NCBI GenBank assembly: GCA_010093605.1
Contig: MU004194.1
Coordinates: forward strand, 435,915 to 455,914
Direction: 5' to 3'
DNA length: 20,000 nucleotides
Origin: Lophium mytilinum
Lineage: Eukaryota
Shown piece after piece: positions 1 to 20,000 of the stretch. Every line of letters begins with the position of its first letter. Position 1 is the stretch's first letter. The position numbers and the translations under genes were made by a program. The notes under the pieces were generated by a model. The model was not told where the DNA came from, made no database searches, and was given only the letters and a program-made list of their open reading frames with translations.

Positions 1-199
1 ACGTCAAGCTTTCATCGGGGCTTCTCGGCGCCTCTTGCCTAAGAGATGCGGTGAGCAGTGAAAGACCGGGGAGGAATGGCGGGGGCCCTGTCGCTGTATT
101 TCTTTTTGCCAACGCCCGGATGAGCTGCACGGGAGCGACCCGTTGCGGGCTGACTGCGTCACCGCCAGCTCAATAGCCAGTCGACAGCGTGGTGGTGAG

Positions 200-223
200 T
201 GCTGTTGCTGCTGCTGCTGCTGC
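200..223. repeat. (TGC/CAG)n microsatellite, 8 units with one variant unit
   Basis: tgc tgt tgc tgc tgc tgc tgc tgc at 200-223; it explains the poly-Q, poly-C and poly-S runs in the overlapping ORF calls. Confidence 0.85.
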
Positions 224-2328
224 CACATGCCCACATTGCCATCTCTGGTGAAGCATGCGGATCGAACATGTCGACGTGCTGATCCGCAGCAGCAACCGCG
301 AAGAGCTTCAACGCTGGCGATCCTTTGCAGCCGACGGCCCAGGGACAACGGCTGCCGAGTAAGGAGCCTGGGACCTGGAGTCCGGAGTACATACGCAGCT
401 CAAGTCGCCCAGAGATAGGAAGCCACCGGAGGAGTCTGTATGGAAAGATGGGGATGCCCTGCTCGCTCAACCCATGCGCGACGAGCCATCACACATCAAT
501 CCGCATCCTGAGCAACACTCTCATCCATCAGCATCCGTCACCTCGCGGCTCACGAGTGCGGTGGGACGGCCCGCGGGCATGCCGTCTGCCTGCCGTCCTA
601 GAGCCACGCTCGTCGTATGGCAACGGCCGGCTATTTGCAGTCTGTGACAGCCGCCGCTGCTGCCTGTCCGAAAGCGAGCGCGGTGGGCTTGGAGATGTCC
701 CTTTTCTGCGGGTTGCACGCCGGCCTGCAACCTGTGGTGCTCCGCATTGGGCGACATTCACCCTGGACCCTCGTCGCCCAGGATCAGCCCTCAAATGCTC
801 CCTCCGAGTTCCAGCCGTGCGGCTGACGAAGAAGCTAGACGACATGCTGAGCAGTCTGGTCTGGTCTGCGCACACATCACTGTGGTACTTGGATTGTAAT
901 AACAGCCAATAGATATATGTACACTGCTTCACCACAGCATGAGGTGCTTCGATATGTTTTTAGACTTGGACGAAGATGAAGATCAGTAAACAGACAATGC
1001 TGACGGCACCAGAGACATCTCATTATGCTAATACGACAGCAATTGCCGGTCCACCGAATGCATTACAACCAAGACAAGGGCAATCTGCTACGCGCAGATC
1101 GAGCAGCTTTGCCGATGTGATAGATGCAAGGCTGCAGGTCTCGTCGCGCCTCTTGGAGCCCAACCGTCAGACATAAACAAGTCCACTACCGACGATCGGC
1201 TACCCTGGCATCTAGAACAGATCTCATCGATGTCTGGACTTCAATCGAGTAGAGCACCTGCCAGGGTGTGTAGCAGAAGGGGAAACATTCCATGTCGTTG
1301 CAAGAGTTTCTGCGGAGTACATGCTGCAGTAGTCCCAACAAAGCCTCCCCCTCAATCGCCATCCACATTACTCCCGTCCAATCAATCACAGCCATTATGG
1401 CTAACTTCATGCACGAGCACCCATTCCGAGACCTTTACGCGCCCGATACCGGTCCTTGGCAGTCACGAGGGGGAGGTCATGCATGTGAGAGAGAGCCTTG
1501 CGAAGAAGTGTGACACGCTGGAACCTAAGCCACCTCCGCCGAACTTGGTTAGTTCGCAGGCGACCTTCTCACTCTCTCTAGTGCCTCATGGACTTTGGTA
1601 TACCTGTCTATCACTGTTGGTGATGCTCCAGCTGGAATTCAGGTATCGAACACAGTCTCAGAACCGCAATTTGAAGAACCGATAACTCGCTGAGCCCCCT
1701 TGGACAGTGGAAAGGGTTGTCCACAGAACGGTGTCCTTGCGCTCACGCCTTCACCCTGTCTACGCACCGACAGCATATGCGTATTTGATACTGCGAAGGT
1801 AGGAGGACCAACGATCAATCTAGTTGAATTGGAGACACCACGTGATCAATATCCCGTACAACTCCTCGACACTAGAAGTACTCTAGAACAGGACTCCATG
1901 TATCTCAAAGCACACACAGGTCATTCTGCCAAGCTATCGCCAACCCTGCCGTGTGACCATCTAACCGTTCGTGCATTACCGGGCACGGGAAGACGCAGGT
2001 CCACGTTTGATCCACGGTCCACCAGCGCATCGCTGATAAGAGTTTGTGTGATGTGATAGCTGACGCAATGTTGCACAATCGGCGATGTTCGAGCATCATT
2101 AGACTGTTGGGCAGTTACGCTTGTCGTAGCAGCAGATGCGTCCTGATGGTCCGAATATTGAAAAAAGGAAATTGGTAAATAGTATAATGCTACAAAGTTA
2201 AAGTCTGAAATTAAGAGAATGGGGGATATCATAAATCACAAGACGCTCACGTGGAGTAAAAAACAATCCATTGCCGCTTCAGTGACAAACCGAATAGGGC
2301 TTGTCCGCTTCATTTGAGACGCAACAGC

Positions 2329-5300
2329 TCACGTAGATGAACCTCTTCCCCCTCCGCTATCATCAGAGCCCCTACCACTACTTCTCGAGCTACCTCCATA
2401 CGTTCCACTAGAAGACTGACTCCCCATCAAAGCAGCTTCAAGATTCGGCGCCGGGCTAGCCTCGCGCACAGTGATGCTCGGCGCCAATCCAATCGCCGGG
2501 ATGAATCCATCCGGAATTGGTGGAAGGTGCGGACTTGGACTTACTGGGACCCGACTCCTAACTGCCTCTTCGTAAGCCTCGTAGAACTGGGTAAGAGCTA
2601 GCTTATCGGAGCAGAATCTCTCAATCTCGTCTTTGATCTCCTCGGGAGTTTGTAAGACCGCCTGCGGTGCCTTCTCGGCTAGCGCATGGAGAAAGGACGA
2701 ATCTTGCACCGGACGTGCTAGCGGCGAGGATAGTGGTGACCGATGAGATGCCGTGTGTCGCTCTGAAGGGGTAGATCCTGTAGTATTTGTGCTACCAGGT
2801 CGTCTTTCGTATGGATCAGTCGGCTTGAACCTCGAGGCATCGCGAGATGCTGCGGCACGATTGTTGTAGAGTCGATTCGCGAGTAGCAAGAACTCGCCCT
2901 TGTCAGTGAGCTGCGCGATCAGGGTACCAGATTTGTGAATGTACTGTGTGAGTAGGTAGTCTGGTTTTCCCCAAGAATAGTTGACATCTACGTCAGAAGG
3001 AAACGCTTTTGCAGCCTCCATGTCCAGTACGAAGCCGAGTTTCCGTAAGAGAGCTTTGTGATATACGTGTTTGTCAGTCTTCACCTGTGGTCCCAATTGA
3101 GTTGTATCAAAATACTGCTCCGGCTGAGACTCTGGCGGTGCCTGTGCAAGACTAACGGTGTATGGGGAGCGGAATGGATGTGCATCGCGAATACTTGAGG
3201 CTTCCGCAATGGGCACCTCTACCAGCTTGAGGCCGTATTTCTCGATTGAGGTAGCCCAAGTGCTAATGGAATCCTCAATCAATTTTGCTGTAACGTTCAT
3301 CCAGTCGATTCGAATGTGATAGCAGTTGTCAGGATTATGTAGGCGATCGTAGTGCAGATTTATAATCTCAGGCCGATACGAGCGTTTCCTAGGGTCTACA
3401 TCGTAGCGCATCACTCGACTCAAAAACACGCTTCGTTTGGGAGTGCCTGCTCTCGTCGGCGTCTTTTCACCCTCGGCAGATCCGGCTGAATCTGCAGTGC
3501 TCGGACGCGACCTATTTGTGCGAGACGACATTGACGACGACTTGGGTGGCTCGGTGAGCGGCGTCGAAGGCACAGATTTGTCTGAGCGACGGGTCCCAAA
3601 CCATCCAGTCCTTGAATCTGGACGAGGAGCCCGATAGTCTTGGGCTATTTGGTAGAAGAAATTCCCGTCTCGAAATTGATGCTTCTTTTGGACGTGTTGA
3701 AACAGACCTTTAGTCATTAGCTGCTTCCCAAGCTCCACTGCCTCATCTCGTGTTTCGATATCTTTGAAATTCTGGAGTATCCAGCTAACAAAGTCGAAAC
3801 CGATGAAGCAATGGTAATGCAGACGAAAATGCCATCTTCGATCAACAATTGGGATGCCTTTCTCGCCCTGAAGATCTTCTGCTAATCTCCTAGCATCTAT
3901 ATTAGAGGTGGAATACTGTTCATTCTCAGAGAACAATTGAGTCGGAACGTCCGTAGGGTCTCCATCAACCAATAACGAGCTTTCTGGCCCAGCAGAAACT
4001 ATCACAGACGGATCTCCGGTCCGGTACTCGATAGCAAGTGGATTTGGGTCTTTCCGCTTCCTGTTCGAAGCCTGAAAATGACCTTCCTCTGGGGGCGTGT
4101 AGCGGAACCGCTGCCATATCTGGGTCAGCTTCCGGATTCCTTCTAGTCGAACTTCCTCCTCCGAATCCTCGCTAAGAAGAGGTAGTGGTCGACGACCGAC
4201 TGAAGGTAGCTCAACTGGGATAAGAACAAAGCGAGCGCGCCAAAAGCGAAGAGAATCGGAGAATTCTTCGTGGTAGCCGGCAAGAAAAGTGTCGATGTAA
4301 TTCCAATTGTACTCCCTTCTTGGAGGTTTCAAGGTGATGCGGCGGGCAATATACTCCTTCTCCAAAGCTGTGCGGACAAGCGGTTGGTAGAGTAGAGGTG
4401 AGTCTACCCCCGCAGATGTTTCTAGGGCTGTCGTCGGCTTTCGACTGAATCTTTTGATCTCGACTTCGCCGCCCGCAACACATACAAGTTGATGAATAGT
4501 GCTCCCTACGCACATGAAAACTGTGTCGCCATCATGCGACATGTATTTGGGATCGAATATTCCAGCGATATCATGCTCACGTCCACCTGCAACCTCTGCA
4601 ACTGCTCTTCCAACGACTATCTGGAACCCATGGGACAGCCTAAACGCGATGAGCTCCCGTATTAGAGACTCACGTGATTTCGGTGCCTCGGACATTTCGT
4701 CATCTTCGTTTTGGGTGATCTTGTATGGGTTCTCACTGTATTCCGTTCTGAGCTGCTCAGGAGTAGGGAAATACTCATTAGTCAATGGAACCGCTGCAGG
4801 AGAGCAGAGTGACTTCCACTTAATCGCCGAAGCGCGAAGTGGCTTCGGGAAGACGTGCTGCCACCTACGGAACTGATTTGCAAGATTCATGTTGTTCTTC
4901 TTAGGATTACACGGATTGACCAGGACTAGCCAGGGCGAGAGTGCACTCGTTGGAGATAGGGTGCGTGGGATGTCGTGGGCACCACCGCTGGACGAGAGAG
5001 TAGGCTTCCGGCTAGCTTCCTTCGATCCGGCAGCAATCAGGAAGAGAGAATTCGGGTCTTTCGTGAGAGACTGCGGTTGGGCATTTGTACTTCCTGTATT
5101 TCCTGCTTTCGTACCATTGATGGTTTCTACCGACCTCGAAGCGTGTTCGGATGGAGAATGGGCTGGAACAGCGTTGGGGCGCAATGCTGCTTTGATGGCG
5201 ATTGGTTGTGAAGGGCTTTCGATTTCTTGAGTCCTAGTACTTGCAAGTTTAGCAGCAATAGCTCCCTTTTGGTTGTTCTCTACTGTCATCTTGGTAGCTT

Positions 5301-8168
5301 CCGCCGTTCCTGAGGATACAGTAGCACTAGCGATAGATTTGGAAGCCCCAAATCCAAGGCCACCAAAACTAATCTGTCTTGATAACCATCCCGCTTGCCT
5401 AGGATTTGCATCAGACTTAGACTTCGTGGAACCGGCGGGGCTATGTTGAGGCTTTGAGGTTTGCGCTTGAGGTGTATGTGACAGTGATGCTTTACTATAA
5501 GCAGCATCTTTTGTACCTAGTCGTGAGTTCTGTGGAGATGACACTGTGACTCGGGGTTGCACCCGACCGGCGTTCTCGTTTTCAGCAAGCTCGGACTTCG
5601 GTGGTATGCCTCCTTCTCCTTTTAGAGATGCAGGCCGTCGAAGAGATCGATAGCTGTCGAAGGCGTCGTGTCTGTACGATGAATCGGAGGGCCTGACACC
5701 CCCTGCACGTGATTGTGATTGGCGGCGCAGGGGTGACTCGGAGGTGTTGGAACGCTCCTTCATTAGCTGATGGAAGTTTGTTTCGGGTGGTGGCCGTGCG
5801 GAACTTCCAAGAGAAGTAATCGTTCCATTGAAAGATGCGGAGAGCAGAGAGTCCTTCGGAGCAGAATCATGTGGGTCCCCACTGTGCGACTGTGCCCAAT
5901 CTTGCCCTGTTTTGAGGATTTTCTCCTCGGCAGCACGCTTTTCGGGCAGTGGCTTGAAGAGATTCTCATCGTACGTTTTCATCCATGTCGATTGTATATA
6001 GCGACCTTTTTGGAGGGAGCTTTCTGCTTGATTGTGATCGACAGAGTTCTCACCCGCTGTTGATGCGGAACCGGGAAATACGATCGAGGGATCTGTGAAG
6101 CCGTTGTGCATTTCGGTCGCCTTATCAGAAAAGCCCCGAAGGGCGTAAGGAAACAATGGCTCTTCCTCCATGAATGGAATAGAGATGTTGCTGAGCTCGC
6201 TTTCCATGATTCCCATCATCTGCAGCTCGTACATCCTGCATCTGAGATTGAACTTTCTTCCATTGTTGCGCAGGCGTGTCAAAGAGCCCTTGGCCCGCTT
6301 GGGCCGCGACAATTCCACAATTTCCTCAGAAGGGCCAGACCAGAATGACACATCTATCCAATGGGGCATCGCATAATTCCATTCATCACTGACCGCCTCG
6401 TTTGCCATTGGCATCCTAATGGATGAACGCAGATGTGCTGACTTTTCTGGCGAAGGATTGACAAGATGACCAAAGTTTGGCCGACTTTGTTTGGGCGTTT
6501 TATCGTCACCGTCTTGATATGGGTCATCCTCAGGAGAACCACGATTTGAAACCAGAGTCATCGGTTTCGGCGCACCACTGGAAATAATCTTGGGATTCCG
6601 GTACTTGAATAAGGGCACAGAGTGCAACGGAATTGGTGATAGGCAGACTAGGTCAATGCCGATGCCCGTGCCAATTAGCGTATCAGTCGTCAGCTTAAGC
6701 ATATTGTAGTCAACCTCAAATATGCCTGTGCCTGCCGATATTACCACGACAGAAATCCCAGTTCGAACTAGGTCCCGGTCGATGTAGTCTTTAGCAAATT
6801 GCACGGATGCCAGGTTTATTGCCTCCAGAATGTTGCCATTAGTTGCCATGGAAGGCGCCCCAGCTATAACCCAATCCATCCTAGTATTTTGACTAGAATC
6901 CTTCTCAATTTCAGGGCGGCCTTTTGTTGGGGTATATCTCTGCAGGAGCGACACGTCCCGAAGAAAAGCTTTGAACTCTTTCTTGAGTTGGTATAATATA
7001 TTGATCCAGTCTCCGCTTGCCATTTCATTCACAACGACGCGGTAGTAGTCCTGGTACGGTCGACCCTGGCTGTTCTTGTCTATTGGTCGACGTTGCTTGG
7101 GCGGATGGCTGCTGGAGAGAATCTCTTCGTTCTCGTACTCCAACCTCGAAAATAAAATGATCGTAACCAGGTGACGGGCATTAATCTTCATCCAGCGTTT
7201 GAATAGCTCAGGAAGAAACCCGTTGACCACCTTGTTGAACATTATTTCCCCAGCGCCTTCGGTGTCGAAGTCCCACATCTCCTTCGACATTTGGATAAAC
7301 AAAACATACCGCGCAGATTCGCTACGAAATATTGGTTTCGTTACCGATGAAAAGTATCCTGAGTGAGTTGATTGGCCATTGATGAATACGTTCTTGACTG
7401 TTGCTTTGATAGTACCCATGAAGAGCAACTTTTGTCCCTTGTAGACGGTCTTATGACTGAGCTCCGACATCGCCATTCGCCACATGTCAGCTCTCGCGAG
7501 ATACTCATCCTTGAAGCCAATCTCAACATGGGATGCAGAGTGAGTGTCCTCGTCAGCCTAATCAAGACTTAGTCATTGATTCTAAATGAGCCTCTGTGGT
7601 AATTTGGAGCACTTACTGTGGTGATCATGATTTGCATACGATTTCTGAAATCAAACACCTTCGCAATTGTTTCAGATATCGAAACCTGGAGATTGGGATA
7701 TTTCGCCTTCTGCTCAGCGCTCATGGGCTTGATGACAAAGACGTAGCTCTTTTCCAAGTCCATGTCACGGCTAGATGGAAACTGGGATCCGTTCTCGTCC
7801 AGCGTGAGGGTTACGGAATGTCGACGAGTCCTCTTCGGCGGTGCATCTGTCGCTGCCTCCCTGGACGTTTCATCTGCTTTCATGTGCCTCGTGTCGGCAG
7901 AGCTAACAGCAGACTCGCGTGTCTCTGCGCGGCGAGTATGTTCCGATGATGCATTCTTGATTGATTGGAAGTCTCGGACGGCAGTCGACTGCTTGAGCGC
8001 AATGATTCGAGCCAACGACCCCGGCGTGATAGACAACTCAGGAAACTTTTCGGCATTGAACACGACCTCATTTTTGGAAAAGTTTTCGTCGTGAGTCCAG
8101 AGGGTACAGACCTTCTGAACTCGAGTGGGTTTAATGTTCTCATTTGACTTTGACATGATACAGGTCAT
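2329..8168 (-). CDS. IML1: Vacuolar membrane-associated protein Iml1 (DEPDC5 orthologue, SEACIT/GATOR1 subunit). Exons 8168-7617 and 7557-2329, ~1926 aa; alternative start at 8156.
   Basis: The 199-aa and 1718-aa ORFs join in frame across a 59-nt intron (...QIMITT|ADEDTHSASHVEIGFKDEYLARADMWR). Recognisable Iml1 motifs: CTLWTHDENFS, IFRSESARYVLFIQMSKEMWDFD, GNILEAINLA, IDRDLVRTG, GIGIDLVCLSPIPLHSVPLFKY, RRWQHVFP, KWKSLCSPAAVPLT, FWRARFVLIP, a DEP domain (DRRWHFRLHYHCFIG...FRDGNFFYQI, ~3640-3860) and LHYDRLHNPDNCYHIRIDW. Confidence 0.96.
7558..7616 (-). other. Spliceosomal intron of IML1 (59 nt, phase 0)
   Basis: On the minus strand: GTAAGT donor at 7616, GACTAAG branch-site-like motif at ~7568-7574, TAG acceptor at 7560-7558. 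Removing it fuses the two ORFs in frame. Confidence 0.92.
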
Positions 8169-8545
8169 TTTAAGCCCATAAGTATCAATATGCTAAAGCC
8201 ATTTGAGCAGAAGCTCCCGAGCGCGCGGGATTGATAGCGCTTTGTGAAGTCTTATCGATGAATCTGCACCCCGTCACGGTTTCATGCGGTGTAGGGGAAA
8301 GCCCATGGCATCCCCTATTGCAAGCTGTTTTCGTTGGATGGACCTAGCCACGGGACAAAGCAAGAGATCGACAGACAAGACGCAGTGAAAGTAGCTCTAG
8401 ATAAATATAATCACCATTGACTTCAAGAGATCGATAAAGGAATTGACGGTAGACGGCAGGCTGATGAGTTGATTGATGGAGGAGTTGAAGGCTGAGTCCA
8501 AACCGCTAGCGGCGGTTTCGGTGAAACCCCCGGAGATTGTCAGCA

Positions 8546-8555
8546 ATCACGTGAT
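8546..8555. promoter_or_regulatory. Palindromic extended E-box ATCACGTGAT ~380 bp upstream of IML1 (candidate bHLH site)
   Basis: A perfect 10-bp palindrome with a CACGTG core in the IML1 upstream region; function is inferred. Confidence 0.4.
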
Positions 8556-8871
8556 CTCCTCCATCACTCCCAGCACTCATATAGAAATTTTTGGAATTCG
8601 CTTCTACTGGATTTGACAACTCAAAAAGTGGCAATCATTCTCATCCGGCACAACAGGGTGGTCCTACTAGCTAGAATTCTCGGACCATGAAATCAGTGAA
8701 CATTTCTCCGCACCATGTAGAATTTCGTGACAGAGTATCCTACCAGAGTAACGTGTCAATACGTGGTCTTCTATGCCACTATCTACTTGTCATCTATAGA
8801 GCGGTTTGGCAAATCTCATTCTACACAAGTATCCACACGAAAGTGATTTCACCGTCCTCCATTCCTATACC

Positions 8872-9822
8872 CTATGCAAAGTGTTTATCAATGGTCGCCT
8901 TCATATCTTTCGCAATCAGCTGGTGCACACGAGTCGTCGGCTGCACGAAGTTCATCCAAAAGTATTCATCTGCATGTTTCTGGACCATGCAATCATTCCA
9001 AGCTGCATCCCCATCCCCGTCGCAAAAGCTTGTCAGTGGCTTGGTAAATCCGTTCGCGGCTGCATTCTCGGCTAGATCGGACACGAAGGTGAAGCTATCG
9101 TAGTAAATGACCTTGGACCCAAACTGCGTGAGGCCAGCCTTGAGAGCATCGTTGGCCTTCTGAATAACGTTTCCCCATGTCGTAACGCAGCCCGCGTCAG
9201 TTCCGCAAAGATACTTTGCAGTTACCGGGGCGATGTGCTTCGGGTAGATATTCGAGACGAAGACGTATGGCGCGCCACCGTTAAGAAGCTTCTTGACTGA
9301 TGCCACAGTCTTGTCCGTAGCGTTGGCTGCGAACTGAGAGTTCTTTGGGTCGCCCTCCCAGAAAGCGTCGGTATGGGCACTGACATCGTTTTGGCCGACC
9401 CAGATGAATTGAAGAGCTTTCTTGATGTTGGAATGCGGTCCCGTTGTATAGTTGTTGATTTGGTCAACAAGCGAAGGAGCTCCGGCACCAGACTTTGTAT
9501 AGGCATTATCGAAAGTGGCGCCGCCACTACTTCCTCCGCAACAGCCCCCGAAGGCAAAATCTCGCATAGGAACTTTGAGGAGGTCGGTAAGATACGACAC
9601 AGCTACAGGGCCGTTAGTCCAGGTACCAAACCCATAGACGTTTGCGGGGTCTCCAGTGATGCCATGGGCGTAGCTGCCGTTGCCGTTGTCGCTGAATTCA
9701 TCCCCGAAAGCGACGAGCTGGTTGAAAGGATAGGCAGAGCGAGATGCAAAGGACGTCGGAGCTGCAAAGGCGGCTGTGAAAAGACTGAGCGCACTCAATG
9801 CGCTAGAGATTTGATGGTACAT
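8872..9822 (-). CDS. Secreted GDSL/SGNH-hydrolase-fold protein (CE16/GDSL-lipase-like), 316 aa, with non-canonical catalytic residues
   Basis: ATG at 9822 in accATG context, followed by a signal peptide (MYHQISSALSALSLFTAAFA-AP). SGNH blocks: LVAFGDEFSDNG (I), WTNGPVAVSYL, FAFGG (II), FIWVGQND (III), YFWMNFVQPTTRVHQLIA (V). Six Cys; no intron needed. The ORF-track extension to 9912 starts at TTG and is probably UTR. Confidence 0.9.
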   Translation of the reverse strand: MYHQISSALSALSLFTAAFAAPTSFASRSAYPFNQLVAFGDEFSDNGNGSYAHGITGDPANVYGFGTWTNGPVAVSYLTDLLKVPMRDFAFGGCCGGSSGGATFDNAYTKSGAGAPSLVDQINNYTTGPHSNIKKALQFIWVGQNDVSAHTDAFWEGDPKNSQFAANATDKTVASVKKLLNGGAPYVFVSNIYPKHIAPVTAKYLCGTDAGCVTTWGNVIQKANDALKAGLTQFGSKVIYYDSFTFVSDLAENAAANGFTKPLTSFCDGDGDAAWNDCMVQKHADEYFWMNFVQPTTRVHQLIAKDMKATIDKHFA

Positions 9823-11504
9823 GGTTCTCGAAACTTGTACGAGATAAAAGAGTGTGTTGTAGTGGATTGCTGAAGAGAAAAACGGCAGAGAGAAAAAGGA
9901 AACGTATTGCAAAGAACGACTTTTGAGATTGAAATCAGATGTTGTTTCTGCTGGGGAACTCCAAGGGTATTAAAAGGCATGGGCACGCCTAAGCCACACA
10001 CGGCCCGCCATTAGGGCCTTTGTGCAGCAGGCCTTCCCCCGAGGAAAATCAAATTTTTTCGACGGCCGGCTGAACCTCGGGGGCTCACGTAAGCGAACTT
10101 AACTAAATTAGGCCATATTAGACATAGAGTTCTTAGTACTTCCCTACTAACTTAATTTACTCTATATAAATTATATAAATACTATAACTCTATAATATTA
10201 ATAATATTAAGTAGAGTAATTAATATACTATATTTAATAGCTATATATATACTTATTTAGTACTATATAACTAAAATTTAATACTAAAGGCTTTAAAAAA
10301 CTTATTAGTATATTTTATTCTTTTAGATACTTAATATAGTACTAGATAATAATATTAAAAAATAATACTAGTATACTATAGGACCTAGATCTTCTATATA
10401 TTTATAGATATAGCTACTAACTAGCTAATAGCTTTATATATAATTAAATCTATTATCTAATACTACTTCTTAATCTCTATCTTTATTATAGCTATAATAT
10501 AATCTCTATTATAATATATTTCTAATATATATAATAGTATTATATACTCTCTAGTATATAATTACTATTATATAACTAGGCTTAGCGCTAGCCTTATCTA
10601 CCTCTTAGCCGGCGCTCCGCGCTCTTCTTTTTTTCTAGTAGCTACTTTATCTATATATACTAATATTAGATCTTCTTTTAAGATTTACTATTATACTATA
10701 ATATAAAGTAGCTACTCTTCTAGCTTTTAAAAGTTTTTAAAAGTACTTTCTTTTCTATCTATCTATATATCTAGCTAATTTAATAGGCTAAAATTTTAAT
10801 ATATAAACCTAATACTCTCTATATTAATATAGAGAGACTTAAAAGAAGGCTCTATAACTTTATAGTAAAGACTCTATATACTCTATCTACTATAGTTAGC
10901 GCGTAGGCTCTATAAACCTACTTACTATTATATGTAACTAACTAATATAAGTATAGTTACTTTCTAATAATAGAGTAAAAACTATATATACTCTATTAGT
11001 AATAGACTAGTATATAGGCTTTATATATCTACTTACTACTATTACGCGTAACTAACTAGTCTATATATAGTTATTCTATTTTTATTTACTAATTAAAAGT
11101 AGCCGCTAAGTATAGTACTAGCTACTTTAGAAAGTATATCTACTTTTAAGCTTTTATAGAGAACCTATACCCTCTACCTTATATTAATCTTTTTTCTCCC
11201 TTTTAAATAGTCTAATAGTGCTTACTAGCTAAGATATATATAACGCCCCTATAACTAGCTATACTAAGCTATAGTAGAAAAACTCTAACTCTATATAGTA
11301 TAGCTATACCTAGCGCGTAGTCTATAGATTTACCTTCTAGCAGTAACTCTAAAAAGTATCTAGTTATTCTTAGTTATACTTCTATTCTTTCTTCTAGCTT
11401 ATAATTATAAGCTACTTAATCTACTCTTATATTTAACTCTTAAAAGGCGCATAAACTTAACTACTAAAAAAAGAAAGCTACCTATAAAATAGGCGGCGGA
11501 GGAG

Positions 11505-11869
11505 TATTATAATATTAATTAACTATAACTCTAAAAGCTCTTACTATACGCGCTAAGAAATTTAGTAATCTAGAACTAGATATTTACCTTCTATTAAACT
11601 AATTTAGTACTAACCTACTATAGAGCTAAGCCTATTATAACCTTACTAACTCTACTAAGTAGAATACTAATAATAACGCCTATATAAATAAAGATAAAAG
11701 TAAAGTTAAAGCTAAAGGTAAAGAAGTCTTTAAGTTATTTACTAAAATATCTATACTCTAAGCTATCTAATTTACTAAACCCCTTATTAATCTAATAACT
11801 CTAGTCTCCTCTTAAATTCTAATTACTTTAGAAAACTAGATTATTACTTCTACTACTAATACTATTATA
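11505..11869 (+). repeat. Candidate 5' LTR of the outer Gypsy-like element
   Basis: Begins and ends with TATTATA, the same RIPed termini as the inner element's LTR in its own orientation. It has a TATA-like tatataaata at 11681 and lies ~45 nt before a gag-like frame. No second copy is present in the window to confirm it. Confidence 0.4.
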
Positions 11870-11914
11870 ATTCTAAATACCTACTCTAATCTTTCTCTTT
11901 AGAGCTAGCCTAAT

Positions 11915-12905
11915 ATAGCTAATATAGGCGCTAGCTCCGCTAGAGCTAGTAGTTATAAACCTAATTATTAATAGTCTCTTCTTATAGATAATAATAATAA
12001 TAGTATAGTCTTTACTATTAACCGCGCTAGGGACGGCTAGTCTATTAATATTACTATTAATAATATAGAAGAGCTCTATAATATAGCTTAAGATAAATAT
12101 ATTAGTATTTATACTATACTACTTAACTATTATAAGAAACTAGGTAAGTTATATAAAGATATTAGAAATATAGTAGTAGCTATTTAATAGAAAGATAATA
12201 AAATTATATAGCTTTAAAAATAATAAGGCGCGTAGAATAGTATTATAATTTATAACCTTAAAGACTAAGCTAGTAAGCTCCGCTACTAAGTAGCTAAAAT
12301 ATATACTAATACTAAGAACTTTACTAATAAACGCGATAGTCTTACTAAGTAGCTAGAAGATAAGCGTAAGAAGACTAATACTTAGACTATTCTTAATACT
12401 AAGCTTTATATTAAGGTTAAAGGCCTTACTACTAAAGTAGTAAAGATTACCTTTTACTATAATTAATACTAATAGTAGTATAATATCTTCTATACTTAAG
12501 GTATAAAGTATAAGAAGAAGTATTAGTAAGCTATATAATAATAGCCTAAAGCGCGCTCTTAATAAGATAATACTACTAACTAAGGTAACTATAGCTATAT
12601 CTCTAATAAAGGCAATAATAACTCTTCTAACTATAGTTATTTTATCTAACCTAACTTTTTATATAATCTAAACGCCTAACTTACTACTAGCCTCTACTAG
12701 CCCTATACTAAATTCCGCGACCTTTAAAAGTTTAAAGAATATAATAATATATCTAAGTATAAATTATAGAAAGCTTATATCTATACTATCTTCTAGAATA
12801 AACTTTAAGACTTCTATAATAAGTAAGCTAAGCTTAAGTATATTAAATTATACTATATTAAATACGCTAAAAGCATTATATATAGCTATACTTAATAGAA
12901 CTACC
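11915..12905 (+). pseudogene. gag: RIP-degraded gag of an outer Ty3/Gypsy-like element, interrupted at 12905 by the nested insertion
   Basis: The frame from 12710 de-RIPs to KFRDPQKFEGHDDVSEYESWKAHVRTVFRNKPQDFHDEQAKLEYIKSR, resembling the fungal Gypsy Gag K.PDP..F.G...W....F..E..K..Y..SR pattern. The same frame extends back through a coiled-coil-like stretch to a candidate ATG>ATA at 11915. Confidence 0.6.
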
Positions 12906-13378
12906 TATAATAGGTTATTTCTTCTATACTCTTTAAATACTTATATAAGGTGGAGTATAGTTTAAGTCTTTATAGGGGTGCAATATTATTTAGAATAAAA
13001 GGTAAATTAATCTTAGGTATAAGATAGGGTTACTTATTAGTAGATATAAGTTACTAATATTAAGTTAAATATAAGGTTTCTATCTATAAGAATAAATATA
13101 CTTAAATATAAAAGATAACTTTTAAGAAATCTATAGATTATATAGATTATCTTAATCCCCTTAATTTAGATCTTTCTAGATTATTATAATCCTTCTAATC
13201 TATTATATAACCTTCTATCTTATAACCTTATAGCTAGGTAGGGAAATCTAGCACGCTAAGGCGTTAAATTCTTATACTTCTAGGTCCCGTATATAGATTA
13301 TATATAACTAATTTAATTTACTTACTTACTTTCTTAAATACCTTAGTAATTAAGTCCTTAGTATTATAGATTATAATA
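12906..13378 (-). repeat. 3' LTR (~473 bp) of the inner chromovirus
   Basis: 12906-13223 aligns without gaps to 19683-20000, with 15 differences in 318 bp by manual count, all transitions. The right boundary is inferred from TATAATA at 13372-13378 abutting the PPT. Confidence 0.88.
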
Positions 13379-13393
13379 CTTACTTCTCCCTCT
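13379..13393 (-). other. Polypurine tract (PPT)
   Basis: The minus strand reads AGAGGGAGAAGTAAG immediately before the 3' LTR start. Confidence 0.75.
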
Positions 13394-13495
13394 AAGGCTT
13401 TTAGCCTAAAAGTTACTCTATAGTAGAATCTTAGATAAATAGCTAGTAATCTTCTAACTACTTAAATATTATTATACTCTTTTATTTCTTCTACT

Positions 13496-14111
13496 ATATC
13501 TAATAAGGTTAAATAATACTTTATACTTAGTACCTATATTACTCTTTCTAGTATCTCTATAGTTTCTTATTTCTTCTACTAGAAGTAGTTCTTAGACTAT
13601 AAAGTACTTTTCTTAGCCTTAGATTACTATAGGGAGTATATTTATTATAGGTATATAAAATATAATACTAGTAGAGTTACTATAGTAGATTATAGGTAGC
13701 TTTTCTTTCTAATTACCTTCTAACTTACTTCTCTTAGTTACCCGTATTAATTAGACTTGCGTAAAGCTTTATACTAAGAAGTCTACTACTTAGAAAGCTA
13801 TAAGAGCGGTAATTATAAAGATAGAGCGCCTAGAAAAGTAGAAGAATCTACTTAAGTATTATAAAGTAAATATACTTTAATATAGCTTCTATACTCTTAA
13901 GAAGTTAAAAGAAAAGAATTATAAAGAGGCTAAGTAGAGAGAATAAGAGTATATTAAAAGGGAAGCCCTACCTTCTATTAGTATATCTATCTCTATTAAG
14001 TTACCTAGTTTAATAGATTCTACTTAGTTAGCTAATATAATATTACTATTATTCTAAGTTATTCTAGATTCTAGTAATAGAACTATATTACTATCTAGTA
14101 GTACTTTTTAA
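13496..14111 (+). pseudogene. RIP-degraded antisense accessory gene of the retrotransposon: Zn(II)2Cys6-like cluster plus coiled coil, two exons (13496 or 13466 to 13691; 13738-14111), ~190-200 aa
   Basis: Six TAY codons (from TGY) at 13568, 13577, 13598, 13628, 13637 and 13661 give CX2CX6CX9CX2CX7C. A 46-nt intron has (G>A)TAGGT...CTAAC...TAG. Exon 2 de-RIPs to FARIDRARAKLRAEK...AKIERLEKQKNLLKRREADMLRRGFRTLEELEEED. Confidence 0.7.
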
Positions 14112-17100
14112 GGTAGCTTTCTAGTTTCTATATATTTTCTAAAGTATTATATCCTTTCTACTTAATTAGGTACTCTATTTACTAACCTTATATTCTTAAG
14201 TCTAGAATCTTATTAACCTTATATTTATTATTATTATTAACCTTAATATTATTCTCTAGCTTAGCGTTCCAGGGTGCTAGTTCTAATAATAAGACGTAAA
14301 ATACTAGGTATATCTTTATTTTAGGTAGTAGCCTAAGCTTATAATTTACTAGGCTAATAACATCTTAGATTTTAAATAGTCTAATTTTAACATAGTTAAG
14401 TTTTCTACTTAGTTATTTTATCTTAATATTTTTTTAGAGTAGGTATACTCTATCCCCCCTTTTAAAAGTAGAAGTAATACGCCTATATTAGTTATAATAC
14501 TATACTAACCTTTATACTAGAAATTAGATATCTATTAATAGCTATTTTTACAGTTCTTTAATATTTTTAATAGAAAGTAATACCCTCTAGGCCTTTATAT
14601 TACTAATTTATAGTTCTTAATATACCTCTAGCTTAAAACTATAGTTTATATAAAAGGGTAATACCTTTATTATCTCTATAGATGCGCTATTATAAGTAAA
14701 CTAGGCTATTAGTAATAGTAATACCTAATTATCTTATTTATAGTTAATATAGTATTATAGATATTATTCTAAAGTCTAATTAAGCCTTTCTATCTATCTA
14801 TCTATTTGCGGGTAGAATACTATAGAGAGCTTATACTTTATTTCTAGTTATATAATAAGAATCTACTAGAATTTTAATATAAAGAGCTTATCTTAGTCTA
14901 AAATAACTTCTATAGGTAGCCTATAGTTACTAATAACTACTTATAGAAATATATAGGCTAGATCTTCTACTATTAATAATTTCTAATAAGGTATAAAGTA
15001 TATATATTTAGTTAATTAGTCTATAATTACTAATATAGTGTTATACTTTATACCTATTATAGGTTCTATAGACTATAGTAGCTTAACTATAAAGTTCTAT
15101 ACTATAGATTTCTATACTTTCTTAGGTATTAGTAGACTTCTTAGTAGTCTATATAGTATATATTATACTAACTTATTTTTTATGCACTTATATTTTATAA
15201 TAATTCTCTCTACTACTTAGTATATATCTAGAAAGTAGAAGGTTCTAGATAGTTATTTAACTATTTTATTAATTTCTTAGTATCTATGCGCTAGTGCGCT
15301 ATAAAAGTCTCTTATAAGCTTATCTTATAGAATTATAGGTATAAGTACTTATTCTTAGAATAGTAGTAGCTCTAACTATTTCTAAGTATCTTAGGTTTCT
15401 TGCAATTATTAACTTGCTAGGTTATTAGCTTATATTTCCTTAATTCTTCTTTTCTACTCTATATTCTTAGCTTAGTATGCTACCGCTAGCTATATATAGT
15501 TAAATTTAAGAGTTCTAGAACTAATTTCCTATAGTATTATTAGTACTTAACTATAGTTTTTTACTATATAGTCCGGCCTTCTACTTAGTGCGTCTATATG
15601 GGTATTCTTAGATCCTTTTTAATATATAATCTTAAAGTTAAAAGATTCTAGTTTCTCTAACTATTTAATCTATTATTAGTTTAACTTCTTAGTTATTATA
15701 AAGTAGGTTAGGTTCTTATAATCTATATATACCTATACTATATATAAGGCTTCTTTAAGATAAACTCTCTATTATTTAAACGCCTCTACTATAGCTAGCA
15801 GTTTCTTATTATAGACGTTATAGTTTAGCTTAGCTAGGCTTAGCTTTTTAGAATAGAATACTATAGGGTGCATCTTTCCTTATTTATCTAGCTAGTTAAG
15901 TATAGCTTTTAATGCTTTATCTAATATATTACTTTTAATAGTTATTAGTTTTTATAGATTAAAGATTGCTAATACTAGTCTTAAAGTAAACTATACTTTT
16001 AAGTTATTAAATGCAACCTAGGCGTTTAAGGTCTATTAATACTCTATATCCTTTTATATAAGTCTAGTAAGTAGTTCTATAATCTTTAAGTATCCCTTAA
16101 TAAATTATTAATAGTAGTTTACTAAACCTAGAAAGAACTATAACTTCTTTAAGTTCTTAGGTTCTAGCTATTCTATAATAGATATAACTTTAGCTTTCTC
16201 TATCTTAATTCTGCCTGGACTAATAATATATTCTAGAAATCTAACTCTTTATATATAGAACTTATATTTCTCTAGCTTAACTATAAGATTATATTCTTTA
16301 AGTTTCCCTAGTACTTTCTTAATATGCTCTTTATATTCTTCTTTATTCTCTAAGTAGATTAGAATATTATTAAGATATACTACTATAAACTAGTCTAGGT
16401 ATCTCTATAGAGCTATATTTACTACTACCTAAAATATAGCTAGCGCGTTTATAAGACTAAATAGTATAACTATATACTTAAAGTATCTATATTAGGTTCT
16501 AAAGGCTATTTTCTATTCTTCTTCTTTCTTTATTCTTATAAGGTAGTAGCCCTCTTAAAGGTCTAGCTTTATAAAGTATTTTACCTTATATAAATAGTCC
16601 TTTAGTTTTAAGATTAAGGGTAAAAGGTAATAGTTTTTAATAGTAATACTATTAAGCTATCTATAGTCTATATAGAGGCGCATTTTACTATCTTTCTTTA
16701 GAATAAATATTACTAAATAACCTGCAGGTAATTCTAATAGTTAGATAAATCCTTACTTTAGATTCTTATCTAGATATTTCTTAAGTATTACTAGTTTATT
16801 CTAGAATAGTAAATAGATTAGTCTAAACTTAGGTTATTTACCTAGTTCTAGAGGTATCTAGTAATTCTAAGATTAGTACTTTAGTAATACATTCTAAACT
16901 TTTTTCTAGAAGATTTCTCTAAATTCTTTATATACTCTTAGTATATCTAGTACTCTAGCTACCTTAGCTAGCTACTAGTTATTAAGATTTATAGGTTAGT
17001 ACTAGAATTAGCCTACTATTTATTCTTTTCTTTAGGCCCTCTATACGCCTCTTAAGGATATTATATTAATCTCTAATTTTTACTTAGGCTTATTCTAGCG

Positions 17101-17658
17101 CGGGGTGCCTTTTAGTCTGCTTTCTAGTTAGAATTATATTTTATTAAATTTCTAATTAACTTAGGGGTTATACTATCTTAGCTAAGGTATTTCTAAGATT
17201 ATATTATATCTTGCTATATTTATAATATCTATACTAATAGTTTCTCTATATTTATTAATCTATATAACTTCTAGTTAAGTTTCTATAGTTACGCGTCTAC
17301 TACTATACTTTACTAGGCTTCTATCTACTAAATATAATCTATAGGGTTTATCTTTTAATTACTATAGAATTTAGTTTTCTTTAATAAAGGTATAGAATAT
17401 ATAATTTCTCTAAGTACTACTATCTAGTAGTACTCTTATAGGTTTTCTACTAATTATTACTCTAATAATTATATATTAGTTATTAGAAATAGGTAAAAAG
17501 TTAGGCTTTATTACTAGATTCTTCTTCCCCTTTACTTACTTTAGTTCTATTTCTACTATAGTAGTAATAGTTGCTAATAACTCTCTATAGGTTGTCTCTA
17601 AGAACCTTTTATTTAGCTACTCTAGCTATCCTTTAGTATAAGCGCCTACTTATTTTTT
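13980..17658 (-). pseudogene. pol: RIP-degraded pol: aspartic protease, reverse transcriptase, RNase H, integrase, chromodomain; 3' end approximate
   Basis: All motifs lie in one frame. De-RIPed: LLDSGA (DSG 17424-17416), ILGIPWL (~17180-17200), RLCVDYRQLN (~16650-16680), [26 protein letters not shown] (~16441-16518), YLDD now YLNN (16377-16366), ESDASD and NYDVHDKELLAIVEA (~15781-15940), ADALSRRPDY (~15570-15597), HGHQGIDKT (~15260-15290), WDFVVKLP, ISDRDKLF, AFHPQTDGQTERLNQTLEQY (14761-14820), GPF, IHPVFHVSLLEP (~14280-14315), chromodomain [32 protein letters not shown] (~14105-14225). Confidence 0.95.
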
Positions 17659-19634
17659 AACTATTTATAAGGCTAATAGTTTATGTATTTCTTTTTATAA
17701 TATATAAGATAAGAGTTCTAGTAGTAGATTCTTTAGTCTTATTCTTTTCTATAGTCTATAGAGTACTATAGATCTAGTATAAATATTACTATTTCTATTT
17801 CTTTATTCTTTTTTTCTATAATATAGTATTTAGCCTCTCTTACTAATACTAGATAGGTAATAATATAGAATCTTATTTAGTATAGATACTACTTATAGCT
17901 CTTTTTATAGAATAGGTACTTTTAATACTAGTCCTCTATATAAAATAGCTAGAATATCTATCTATAAAGTAAATAGTTATAGTTTAGCCTAGAGTCTTTC
18001 TAGCTATATATACTCTTTTCCCTAATAGATTATATACTTCTATAGATTTAGATGCTAGTACTATATCTATATAGTTTTAGTAGTTCTCTAGCAGGTACTA
18101 GGCTAATTTCTCTATTACTAGTTTATTCTAAATTCTCTTATTCTTTCTTACTAGAGGGTTCTTACTCTAGGTTAAAAGTTCTAGATATATAGTAGTTACT
18201 TATAACTATTCTAAGTAGAGTTTATTCTCTATATTCTAGTTATAGTAAGAAGTACTATTATATAACCTTATTAATAGCCTATTATATCTCTAGGGATTCT
18301 AGTTTTATACTACTAGTAGAGTCTATCTTCTATTCTATCTTAACTCTAGTTACTTATTTAAGTAGTAAGCTAATTATCTTATATAATTCTTCTATTTCTA
18401 GATAATTAACTTCTATTTTATTATACTCTATATTAGCATAGTAGTTATTAAGGTAGTTATTCTTATTAATATACTCTTTATTAGTTATTATAGCTATAGT
18501 ATATATTTCCTTAGATTTATATAAGTAGTAGCCTAATCCCTACTTATTAAATTAGTAGGTAAAATAGTTATTATTATAGCACGCAGTCTATAATATAGCC
18601 TTATAGCTAACTTTAGGCATCTTTATTATTACTACTGCTATTTAGTTATTATTACTCTTAGGGCACTTATTTATAAAGTATTCCATCTTTCTATATTATA
18701 GGTACGCGCCCTTCTTATATTATTTCTATTTTTCTTTATCTAATAGTAGTTAGTACTTATATTTCTTATATTATTTAGTATAGTCTAGTTCTATTAGTTT
18801 TCTAAAGTAGTATATAACTATTTCTCTCTTATATACTAGTGCGTAGAGGTATAGGCTTTTATAGTTAGTTTTCTCTATACACCTTTTATATTATTAATTA
18901 TTAATATAGATTACTATCTTCTAGAGTCTATAGACTATTACTAGTCTATTACTTCTAGTAATTTTATTCTTAATATCTTCTTTAAGACTTCTATAGTACT
19001 ATACTACTAGAGCTTTATCTCTCTATACTAGCTTTAAGGATATCTATATAAACTTTAAGGTATAGTAGCTAGCTAAGCTGCGCTATTTTAGGTTCTTAAT
19101 TTATTATTCTATAGTTTAGATTTTATTAATATCTCTAAAGGTAGTTTAGAGCGCTATTTTAAAGTTTTAGTAGTTACTAAATATATTATTAGTCTCTATT
19201 TTTCTTTTTACTAGTTTAGTAGTATAAAGCTAGTCTATAAGTACTAGGTTAAACTAGTTAAATGCTTCTTTCTTAAGGAAGATTACTACTATATAGACCT
19301 TATCTAACTTAAATATAAGGTTATTACTATTATTAAGTAGGTATAGCTTTATCTATATTAAGAAGGCTTATAGAGTTTCTCTATTACCTAAGAACTTCTT
19401 AGGTTTCTTTATCTTATATCCTTTATAGCTACTAGTTACCTTACTAGTTATAACCTCCTCTTAAATAGCCTAGAGGTAGCCCTAGAGAGCTAGAATCTTC
19501 TTATTTTTAGTCTTATTCTAGAGTTCTAACTATTAGACCTAAGTAAGTAGCGTTTATATTTATTCTACTATATTAGCTATTATTAGTATAGGGCCTTAGG
19601 TAGTACTTCTTTAAGGGGTTTATAGTAGTACTAT
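17646..19634 (-). pseudogene. gag: RIP-degraded gag (~660 aa) with capsid region, CCHC zinc knuckle and long C-terminal extension; start approximate
   Basis: De-RIPed motifs in one frame: KKPEEFSGDR (~19380-19410), FGDIDEVRTAERQIKNLKQRGSA..YASEF (~19050-19140), YYGGLKEDVKDEI (~18960-18998), GEPMELD (~18783-18803), CLRCGKMGHF.NECP (18704-18663). Stop TAG at 17648-17646. Confidence 0.88.
17652..17658 (-). other. Putative -1 ribosomal frameshift slippery site A AAA AAC (now A AAA AAT) at the gag/pol junction
   Basis: The minus strand reads tta aaa aat aag tag, which de-RIPs to TCA AAA AAC GAG TAG (SKNE*) in the gag frame. The pol frame is exactly -1 relative to gag. Confidence 0.7.
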
Positions 19635-19672
19635 CTTAATTAGGTATTTATATATAATCCTCTAATATAGTA

Positions 19673-19682
19673 GTATTTAAAG
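19673..19682 (-). other. Primer-binding-site position, complementary to a 10-mer inside the adjacent LTR
   Basis: The minus strand reads CTTTAAATAC directly after the 5' LTR end. It is an inverted repeat of 19708-19717 (one transition) and a perfect inverted repeat of the other LTR copy at 12931-12940. Confidence 0.55.
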
Positions 19683-20000
19683 TATAATAGGTTATTTTTT
19701 CTATACTCTTTAAGTACTTATATAAGGCGGAGTATAGTTTAAGTCTTTATAGAGGTGTAATATTATTTAAAATAGAAGGTAAATTAATCTTAGGTATAAG
19801 ATGGGGTTACTTATTAGTAGGTATAAGTTACTAATATTAAGTTAAATATAAGGTTTCTATCTATAAGAATAAGTATACTTAAATATAAAAGATAACTTCT
19901 AAGAAATCTATAGATTATATAGATTATCTTAATCCCCTTAATCTAGATCCTTCTAGATTATTATAATTCTTCTAATCTATTATATAACTTTCTATCTTAT
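19683..20000 (-). repeat. 5' LTR of the inner chromovirus (truncated by the window edge)
   Basis: Direct repeat of 12906-13223. Confidence 0.92.

Follow-up and report, generated by a model that had tools for sequence, protein, structure and literature searches.

Long terminal repeat (LTR) retrotransposons are usually viewed as gag-pol machines. HBZ of human T-cell leukaemia virus type 1 (HTLV-1) is a dimerizing basic leucine zipper (bZIP) transcription factor with a DNA-binding part, and it is encoded on the antisense strand. The gene considered here likewise lies antisense to pol, between pol and the 3' LTR, in a Ty3/Gypsy chromovirus found in 20,000 nucleotides (nt) of the genome of Lophium mytilinum (GenBank assembly GCA_010093605.1, contig MU004194.1, positions 435,915 to 455,914 of the forward strand; this whole stretch is called the window, and positions are counted from its first letter). 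In our view, it is probably a copy, killed by repeat-induced point mutation (RIP), of an antisense gene conserved in one clade of ascomycete Ty3/Gypsy elements, the product of which would act as a Gal4-like regulator.

Like the window gene, HBZ is encoded in antisense at the 3' end of its element, and it has a dimerizing helix, as is predicted for the family of the window gene. In contrast, it is a bZIP rather than a zinc-cluster protein, it belongs to a human retrovirus and not to a fungal retrotransposon, and the two have no sequence relation. The antisense promoter of HTLV lies inside the 3' LTR (PMC7264820). In plants, antisense open reading frames (ORFs) between pol and the 3' LTR include gene23 of Grande, those of RIRE2 and Retand, and ORF2 of PvRetro13; their products are in some cases nuclear, and a regulatory role for them has been suggested (PMC7264820). 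These plant ORFs have the same position and orientation as the window gene, but they occur in non-chromovirus lineages and have different domains or none that can be recognized.

Among fungi, the Boty-like (BcGypsy1) retrotransposons of Botrytis cinerea carry an additional antisense gene called brtn, originally reported by Zhao et al. (2011, Virology 417:248), and Boty has been grouped with elements that have antisense ORFs between pol and the 3' LTR (PMC7264820, PMC8365987). A preliminary reading of the window from its letters alone, referred to below as the sequence-only reading, had named brtn as a possible precedent, and this precedent is indeed in print (PMC7264820, PMC8365987). Like brtn as these texts present it, the window gene is an extra antisense gene of an ascomycete Ty3/Gypsy chromovirus, and the two may be the same gene. 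The review passages on such antisense ORFs describe neither a clear similarity to other proteins nor a known role for any of them (PMC7264820), and the zinc-cluster reading appears to be absent from both review texts where they deal with these ORFs. A full-text literature search, with most subscription journals outside its coverage, found no zinc-cluster antisense gene in a fungal retrotransposon. Antisense ORFs are known in themselves; what this case adds is one with a conserved architecture of cluster, helix (predicted to dimerize) and acidic tail, with an intron shared among relatives, and with a distribution that follows the pol tree.

The element occupies DNA that is heavily RIP-mutated. 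Positions 10000-20000 have a GC content of 25%, a TpA/ApT index of 1.78 and a (CpA+TpG)/(ApC+GpT) index of 0.09, as against 0.62 and 1.27, respectively, in the gene half of the window, where positions 1-9900 have about 50% GC and ordinary fungal genes. The antisense gene (Table 1) is placed between the edge of the 3' LTR at 13378 and the end of pol near 14060, on the plus strand. The distance from its start codon is 87 nt to the LTR edge and about 600 nt to the end of pol, and the last 50 nt or so of the gene overlap the last pol codons, tail to tail. In relatives, the polypurine tract and the adjoining TGT(T/C)AC are found within some 90-140 nt of the start codon (by eye). When spliced, the gene is 600 nt long and in frame, with 199 codons and a TAA stop codon at 14109-14111. 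The intron begins with ATAGGT, which would have been GTAGGT before a G>A change. As a gene, this copy is dead, with 11 internal stops, Tyr codons at each of the six Cys positions, and ATA in the place of the ATG start codon of relatives.

Most of what the sequence-only reading had said of the gene's layout held up. Its literal plus-strand translation was reproduced exactly (13562-14111), the six TAY codons have the X2, X6, X9, X2, X7 spacing that it gave, and the frame of 13740 contains the string KIERLEK*KNLLK. The gene lies where it had been put, with pol ending on one side of it and the polypurine tract and 3' LTR on the other. The proposed intron has its position and phase in common with the introns of relatives, and the proposed start at 13466 coincides with the MSSR start of the family. 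The Met-like codon at 13559, in contrast, is not the start, as the conserved MSSR N-terminus of the family aligns with 13466-13477.

Table 1. Features of the window, with the antisense gene first, then its host element and the neighboring host genes
Feature	Positions	Strand	Remarks
Antisense gene, exon 1	13466..13691	+	basic N-terminus, helix, six-Cys cluster; 3 in-frame stops
Six TAY codons aligned with the six invariant Cys of the family	13568, 13577, 13598, 13628, 13637, 13661 (13568..13663)	+	
Antisense gene, intron	13692..13737	+	46 nt, phase 1; branch site CTAAC at 13720-13724; 3' end TAG
Antisense gene, exon 2	13738..14111	+	coiled-coil region, acidic stretch, Ser/Gly/Pro-type tail; 8 in-frame stops
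3' LTR	12906..13378	-	473 nt; 95% identical to 19683-19982; sense strand begins TATTATAAT
Polypurine tract (candidate)	13379..13395	-	sense strand TTAGAGGGAGAAGTAAG, immediately upstream of the 3' LTR
pol (reverse transcriptase, RNase H, integrase, SH3, chromodomain)	14062..16704	-	RIP-mutated, single frame; Pfam and P0001 match
5' LTR	19683..20000	-	truncated by the window end
IML1/DEPDC5-type host gene	2329-8168	-	IML1 N-terminal pieces split over two ORFs
GDSL-like lipase, host gene	8872-9912	-	

The gene is real beyond chance because of its homology to intact relatives, and not because of its Tyr pattern. When the literal translation of exon 2, with X at the stops, was run in an exhaustive HMMER search against 1.84 billion proteins, it matched P0121 (E=2.4e-10) and P0122 (E=2.1e-6). 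A third match, P0123 (E=8e-6), was set aside, as it is a repeat protein that matches a low-complexity Ser/Ile stretch only. Aligned with P0121 by BLASTP, exon 2 is identical at 37 of 101 positions in a gapless match that reaches both C-termini. After reversal of RIP (T>C or A>G), 78 of the 101 columns become identical, as compared with 21.1 +/- 4.0, and 35 at most, in 1000 shuffles.

Exon 1 was approached by RIP-aware scoring, in which a profile of ten relatives is compared with the residues that reversal can reach at each codon. Over the six frames of the 10 kb, the profile scores highest, with 90.8 bits, on plus-strand positions 13466-13687, and the runner-up reaches 68.6 bits. The best scores of 118 dinucleotide shuffles have a mean of 65.2, a standard deviation of 2.7 and a maximum of 74.5, from which a Gumbel estimate gives about 3e-6. 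In the column alignment, which spans exon 1 from end to end, 60 of 70 columns are able to reach a family residue and 25 of them match literally. All six Cys, through G>A reversal of the TAY codons, and the invariant Ser, with which the TTC at 13571 aligns, are reachable in this way. Other copies of the element, from this organism and from a second one, cover the gene region in contigs of public runs X1-X3, while run X4 gave none. The changes in these copies run in the expected direction: among the differences listed, the invariant Ser codon is TCC instead of TTC (13572 T>C), and in the run of the second organism the Cys2 codon is TGC instead of TAC (13578 A>G, 2 of 2 contigs). The proposal that the Tyr codons derive from Cys codons is thereby supported, with relatives that have Cys at all six positions and another copy that reads TGC at Cys2.

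Relatives were found by scanning metagenome contigs with P0001, which yielded 80 loci that were oriented with pol on the plus strand. A search of all six frames for the strict Zn2Cys6 spacing (C-x2-C-x6-C-x5-12-C-x2-C-x6-8-C) gave 13 matches, 12 of which are on the strand opposite pol, in 11 loci. All 12 have the form CSxC...C...CxEC...C, while the single match on the sense strand, in L058, resembles an ordinary host factor. Uninterrupted antisense ORFs of 185-192 residues are present in L005, L006 and L023; the antisense frame is free of stops throughout these full-length genes, whereas in two of the three loci the sense frames are interrupted by stops. The antisense accessory gene put forward by the sequence-only reading thus exists in intact relatives, at the same site and with the same orientation. 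A sense frame is also open right across the antisense gene in some GC-rich relatives (P0001, P0002; L005, 3033-3605, plus strand), and in P0001 and P0002 gene callers lengthened pol by about 290 residues beyond the chromodomain, an extension that we take to be a probable artefact of reading through GC-rich DNA. In L001, L002, L003, L007, L008, L013 and L046, the gene is interrupted 8-9 codons and 1 nt after the sixth Cys by a GT...AG intron with branch-like motifs; all seven introns are in phase 1, and that of L046 is 48 nt long (partly read by eye).

With a hidden Markov model (HMM) of literal exon 1, the gene was found in 14 loci, every time antisense. Of the 25 loci with 800 nt or more of sequence beyond the C-terminus of pol, 9 are positive by this literal HMM, with the start of the gene 443-726 nt past the pol match. 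Several of the apparent negatives either carry RIP-type mutations or are of a subtype in which Cys2 and Cys3 are separated by an insertion. RIP-aware scoring, in which the gene is called if a segment scores at least 18 bits higher on its antisense than on its sense strand, makes it detectable in 17 of the 25 testable metagenome loci. This corresponds to 13 of 21 distinct sequences once duplicates are merged (L011=L012, L013=L014, L017=L018=L019). In the pol tree, the 7 clear negatives form one clade, and the carriers, the window element and P0001 make up the remainder, so that gene presence follows the tree. Two features of this comparison tell against it, namely that the 18-bit cut-off was picked after the numbers had been seen, and that the tree is a quick FastTree reconstruction with a midpoint root, the branches of which RIP has perhaps distorted.

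A few observations on individual relatives may be added. Downstream of pol, on the antisense strand, L056, L072, L064, L073 and L051 have undergone C>T/G>A mutation as well, with Tyr at some of the same Cys positions; in L072, the first three Cys read Tyr. The subtype with an insertion between Cys2 and Cys3 has extra Cys residues (CSLCLLC...) and is represented, downstream of pol, by L011/L012 (7332-7571, minus strand), L017-L019 and L025; it does not fit the strict Zn2Cys6 spacing.

The intact relatives specify a protein of about 190-200 residues, in which a basic N-terminus (MSSRxxKxR), a helix, the cluster, a linker, a long helix, an acidic stretch and a tail follow each other in that order. 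The cluster reads CSxC-x6-C-x8-10-C-xEC-x6-7-C, and its six Cys and one Ser are invariant in all 11 aligned sequences, of which all except L011 have the exact Zn2Cys6 spacing. It is followed by a short linker of the form CDGxGV. The long helix contains a conserved RLRKQK...RG[LF]xSL[DE]ELE motif, and the tail is rich in Ser, Gly, Pro and Ala, with a conserved Trp and a DGTVLPS-like end. An AlphaFold2 model based on 15 sequences has a mean predicted local distance difference test (pLDDT) value of 86.3, with values above 90 over the cluster. It contains helices at residues 16-30, 38-43, 57-62, 73-131 and 136-156, the second and third of which begin at the CxxC pairs.

The long helix, of about 60 residues, is predicted to pair with itself. 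The homodimer model scores 0.54, as against 0.02 for the best control, at least 77% of the contacts agree across runs, and the pLDDT of the partner is at least 77. Of 30 proteins solved as same-chain pairs, 21 reached the mark used for this prediction, and of 23 solved as single chains none did; as the alignment was not used in the dimer run, which included zinc, passing the mark may reflect likeness to solved coiled coils. In the model of L006, the helix at 73-131 pairs around residue 100. The predicted pairing is antiparallel, the numbers of the contacting residues summing to about 200-208, which would place the two Cys clusters at opposite ends, unlike in Gal4. The coiled coil of the sequence-only reading is retained in part: the long charged helix and the Ser/Gly/Pro-rich tail are there, and the parallel coil of Gal4 is not what the model gives.

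Is the cluster a Zn2Cys6 domain of the Gal4 type? In favor of this, beyond the spacing, Zn_clus (PF00172) is the sole Pfam family matched by more than one member, at E<=1 for 9 of 11 proteins and with a best value of 7.5e-4. When the full model was compared with 350,542 chains by Foldseek, ranks 1-11 were all occupied by Zn2Cys6 DNA-binding domains, namely those of Ppr1, Put3, Pho7, Gal4, Hap1 and Leu3. With the domain model, such domains fill 6 of 8 rows (E 1.3-5.3). The LAC9 domain superposes on the model with a root-mean-square deviation of 1.6 A over 33 of 33 residues. Likeness to Gal4-type factors extends to two short helices, each predicted to start at a CxxC, the linker, the long helix that is predicted to pair with itself, and the acidic tail. 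In contrast with those factors, the family scores below the Pfam threshold, has only about 190 residues with an extra helix N-terminal to the cluster, lacks the middle homology region and has no other Pfam domain in its proteins; its coil is predicted to be antiparallel, and it is encoded by a retrotransposon. It seems likely, on balance, that the cluster is a true, divergent binuclear cluster, and the family is a putative member of Pfam Zn_clus, with scores that are consistent but below threshold.

Other explanations of the locus are less probable. One of them is that RIP in AT-rich DNA produced the Tyr spacing and the heptad-like text by accident, the spacer being a long non-coding 3' region. 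The Tyr pattern, taken by itself, could be a chance product. A six-frame search of 10000-20000 for the Zn2Cys6 spacing with Tyr in the place of Cys finds two matches, and the second match, at about 14992-15090 on the plus strand, is antisense inside the integrase part of pol, which indicates that the pattern arises readily by chance in RIP-mutated DNA. Dinucleotide shuffles of the 10 kb (n=300) contain 0.5 matches on average and at least one in 36% of cases; in the spacer alone (895 nt), the pattern appears in 1.9% of 2000 shuffles. Four more Tyr codons occur within the same 35 residues as the six TAY codons. Stop density does not set the frame apart either, since many frames, including the antisense of pol, have no more than 3 stops per 70 codons. 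Literal exon 1, with X at the stops, matches nothing in Pfam, in a word-indexed search for proteins of similar or lesser length or with the family HMM, as is to be expected from a sequence in which all Cys now read Tyr, and comparison of the spacer with the window by loose blastn gave only AT-rich noise at 58-65%. Against all this stand the exon 2 match, an exon 1 score beyond those of all 118 shuffles, an intron in common with relatives and an antisense gene that is intact in related elements, and these results have already refuted a chance origin. The capture of genes by LTR elements is reported in a review. A host gene fragment captured a single time, or a nested insertion, would however not be a standing part of the family, whereas 17 of 25 loci, drawn from many metagenomes, have this gene at the same site and in the same orientation. 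Together with pairwise identities among relatives of only 30-50%, this implies long co-descent. Presence that tracks the pol tree, and copies from the same and a second organism that cover the region, also make a single capture very unlikely.

A more serious contender, which we nonetheless regard as unlikely, accepts the gene as real and takes the six-Cys module for some other zinc or disulfide module that binds protein or RNA, with a helix that only oligomerizes. The protein might then chaperone or export the RNA of the element, tether its integration complex or block a host silencing protein. Several results lean this way or weigh against a Gal4-type cluster, as do the antiparallel pairing and the reservation about the dimer run. 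The Pfam gathering threshold for Zn_clus, 21 bits, is missed, with 5 of 8 proteins at 11.2-15.8 bits. A sequence profile search of the Protein Data Bank (PDB) found nothing significant, its best match being a ZZ-type finger (E=0.017), with LAC9 at E=0.29. The Foldseek E-values for the full model are all at or above 0.11, and hence not significant. With VIA-align, Z does not exceed 2.6, LAC9 (Z 2.2) ranks 11 among unrelated helical rows, and none of the 8 chains from Foldseek reaches Z 2 upon re-examination. The hhalign comparison with one canonical Zn_clus protein (L058) gave a probability of 2.7%. The stretch from Cys2 to Cys3 is not markedly basic. Where Gal4 has what we take to be its DNA-contacting Lys, the family has Gly, and the loop Pro is absent too. 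The nearest clusters in the ESM Atlas are sets of Ascomycota 'hypothetical proteins' with 122, 62 and 90 members and no common Pfam family, and the named clusters score below 0.9. On the other side are the exact Zn2Cys6 spacing in 10 of 11 sequences, the standing of Zn_clus as the only repeated Pfam match, the eleven leading Foldseek ranks and the LAC9 superposition. The Zn2Cys6 identification proposed from the Tyr codons thus stands as far as the Cys spacing in relatives is concerned, whereas Pfam scores below threshold and non-significant fold matches speak against its stricter form.

If the cluster is of the Gal4 type, a mechanism can be outlined for live elements. An antisense promoter in or beside the 3' LTR would transcribe the gene, which the 87 nt between the start codon and the LTR edge geometrically allow. 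The transcript would be spliced and would give rise to a dimeric zinc-cluster protein. The intron, being on the antisense strand, is not a splice site in the sense genomic RNA, and retrotransposition, given the way in which retroelements replicate, would therefore not be expected to remove it. The protein might then enter the nucleus, bind nucleic acid and regulate the transcription or the silencing of the element, in the manner of a minimal Gal4-type factor; this regulator function is inferred. A broader proposal is that the whole ascomycete chromovirus clade encodes its own dimeric Gal4-like factor in an intron-bearing antisense gene driven by the 3' LTR, and that this factor binds the LTR of the element or host chromatin and sets the transcription of the element against genome defence, i.e., RIP, RNA interference and heterochromatin. 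We put this forward as a tentative idea, more doubtful than probable. If it is true, this arrangement would be for fungi what the antisense regulators are for complex retroviruses, and the elements of the clade would be 'complex' retroelements with a trans-acting regulator. With the present gene, the notion of a regulator encoded by a retrotransposon becomes directly testable. RIP-aware profile scoring, for its part, recovers genes that are missed by literal translation, and heavily RIP-mutated fungal genomes may conceal more of them.

The identity of the host element is clear from several features. With stops read as X, the Pfam domains RVT_1, RT_RNaseH and SH3_Tf2-1 are found in one minus-strand frame, and direct repeats (12906-13205 and 19683-19982) share 95% identity; these features identify the element as a minus-strand Ty3/Gypsy chromovirus. 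Reverse transcriptase, RNase H and integrase are present in that order, followed by a C-terminal chromodomain, and LTRs flank the whole. For the chromodomain, at about 14223-14100 of the minus strand, the Pfam match (Chromo) is weak, at E=0.047; relatives carry PF00385. The mutated pol, again with stops as X, has the intact P0001 as its best match (47% identity, E=1.4e-256). At the place where the sense strand of the 3' LTR begins TATTATAAT in the window, relatives read TGTTAC or TGTCAC, and at the place matching the polypurine tract they have a GGAGGGG-type run and then TGT(T/C)AC (read by eye). Contigs of other copies of the element end at 13376-13382, around the inner edge of the 3' LTR. 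In L003, L005, L007, L008, L013 and L023, the sequence at one contig end recurs at the other, with periods of 6268-6795 nt. This fits two LTRs that were collapsed in a circle-like fashion during assembly, and the limits of the LTRs are accordingly not readable in those contigs.

Of the host genes listed in Table 1, that of the IML1/DEPDC5 type probably has an intron near 7485-7569, since the pieces of its IML1 N-terminal region fall in two ORFs. The onset of the AT-rich block is abrupt, near 9900-10000. Between there and the 3' LTR, positions 10000-12905 are RIP-like and AT-rich, with no Pfam domain in any frame and some long stop-poor stretches, e.g., 12847-11806 on the minus strand; this segment may be another degraded element.

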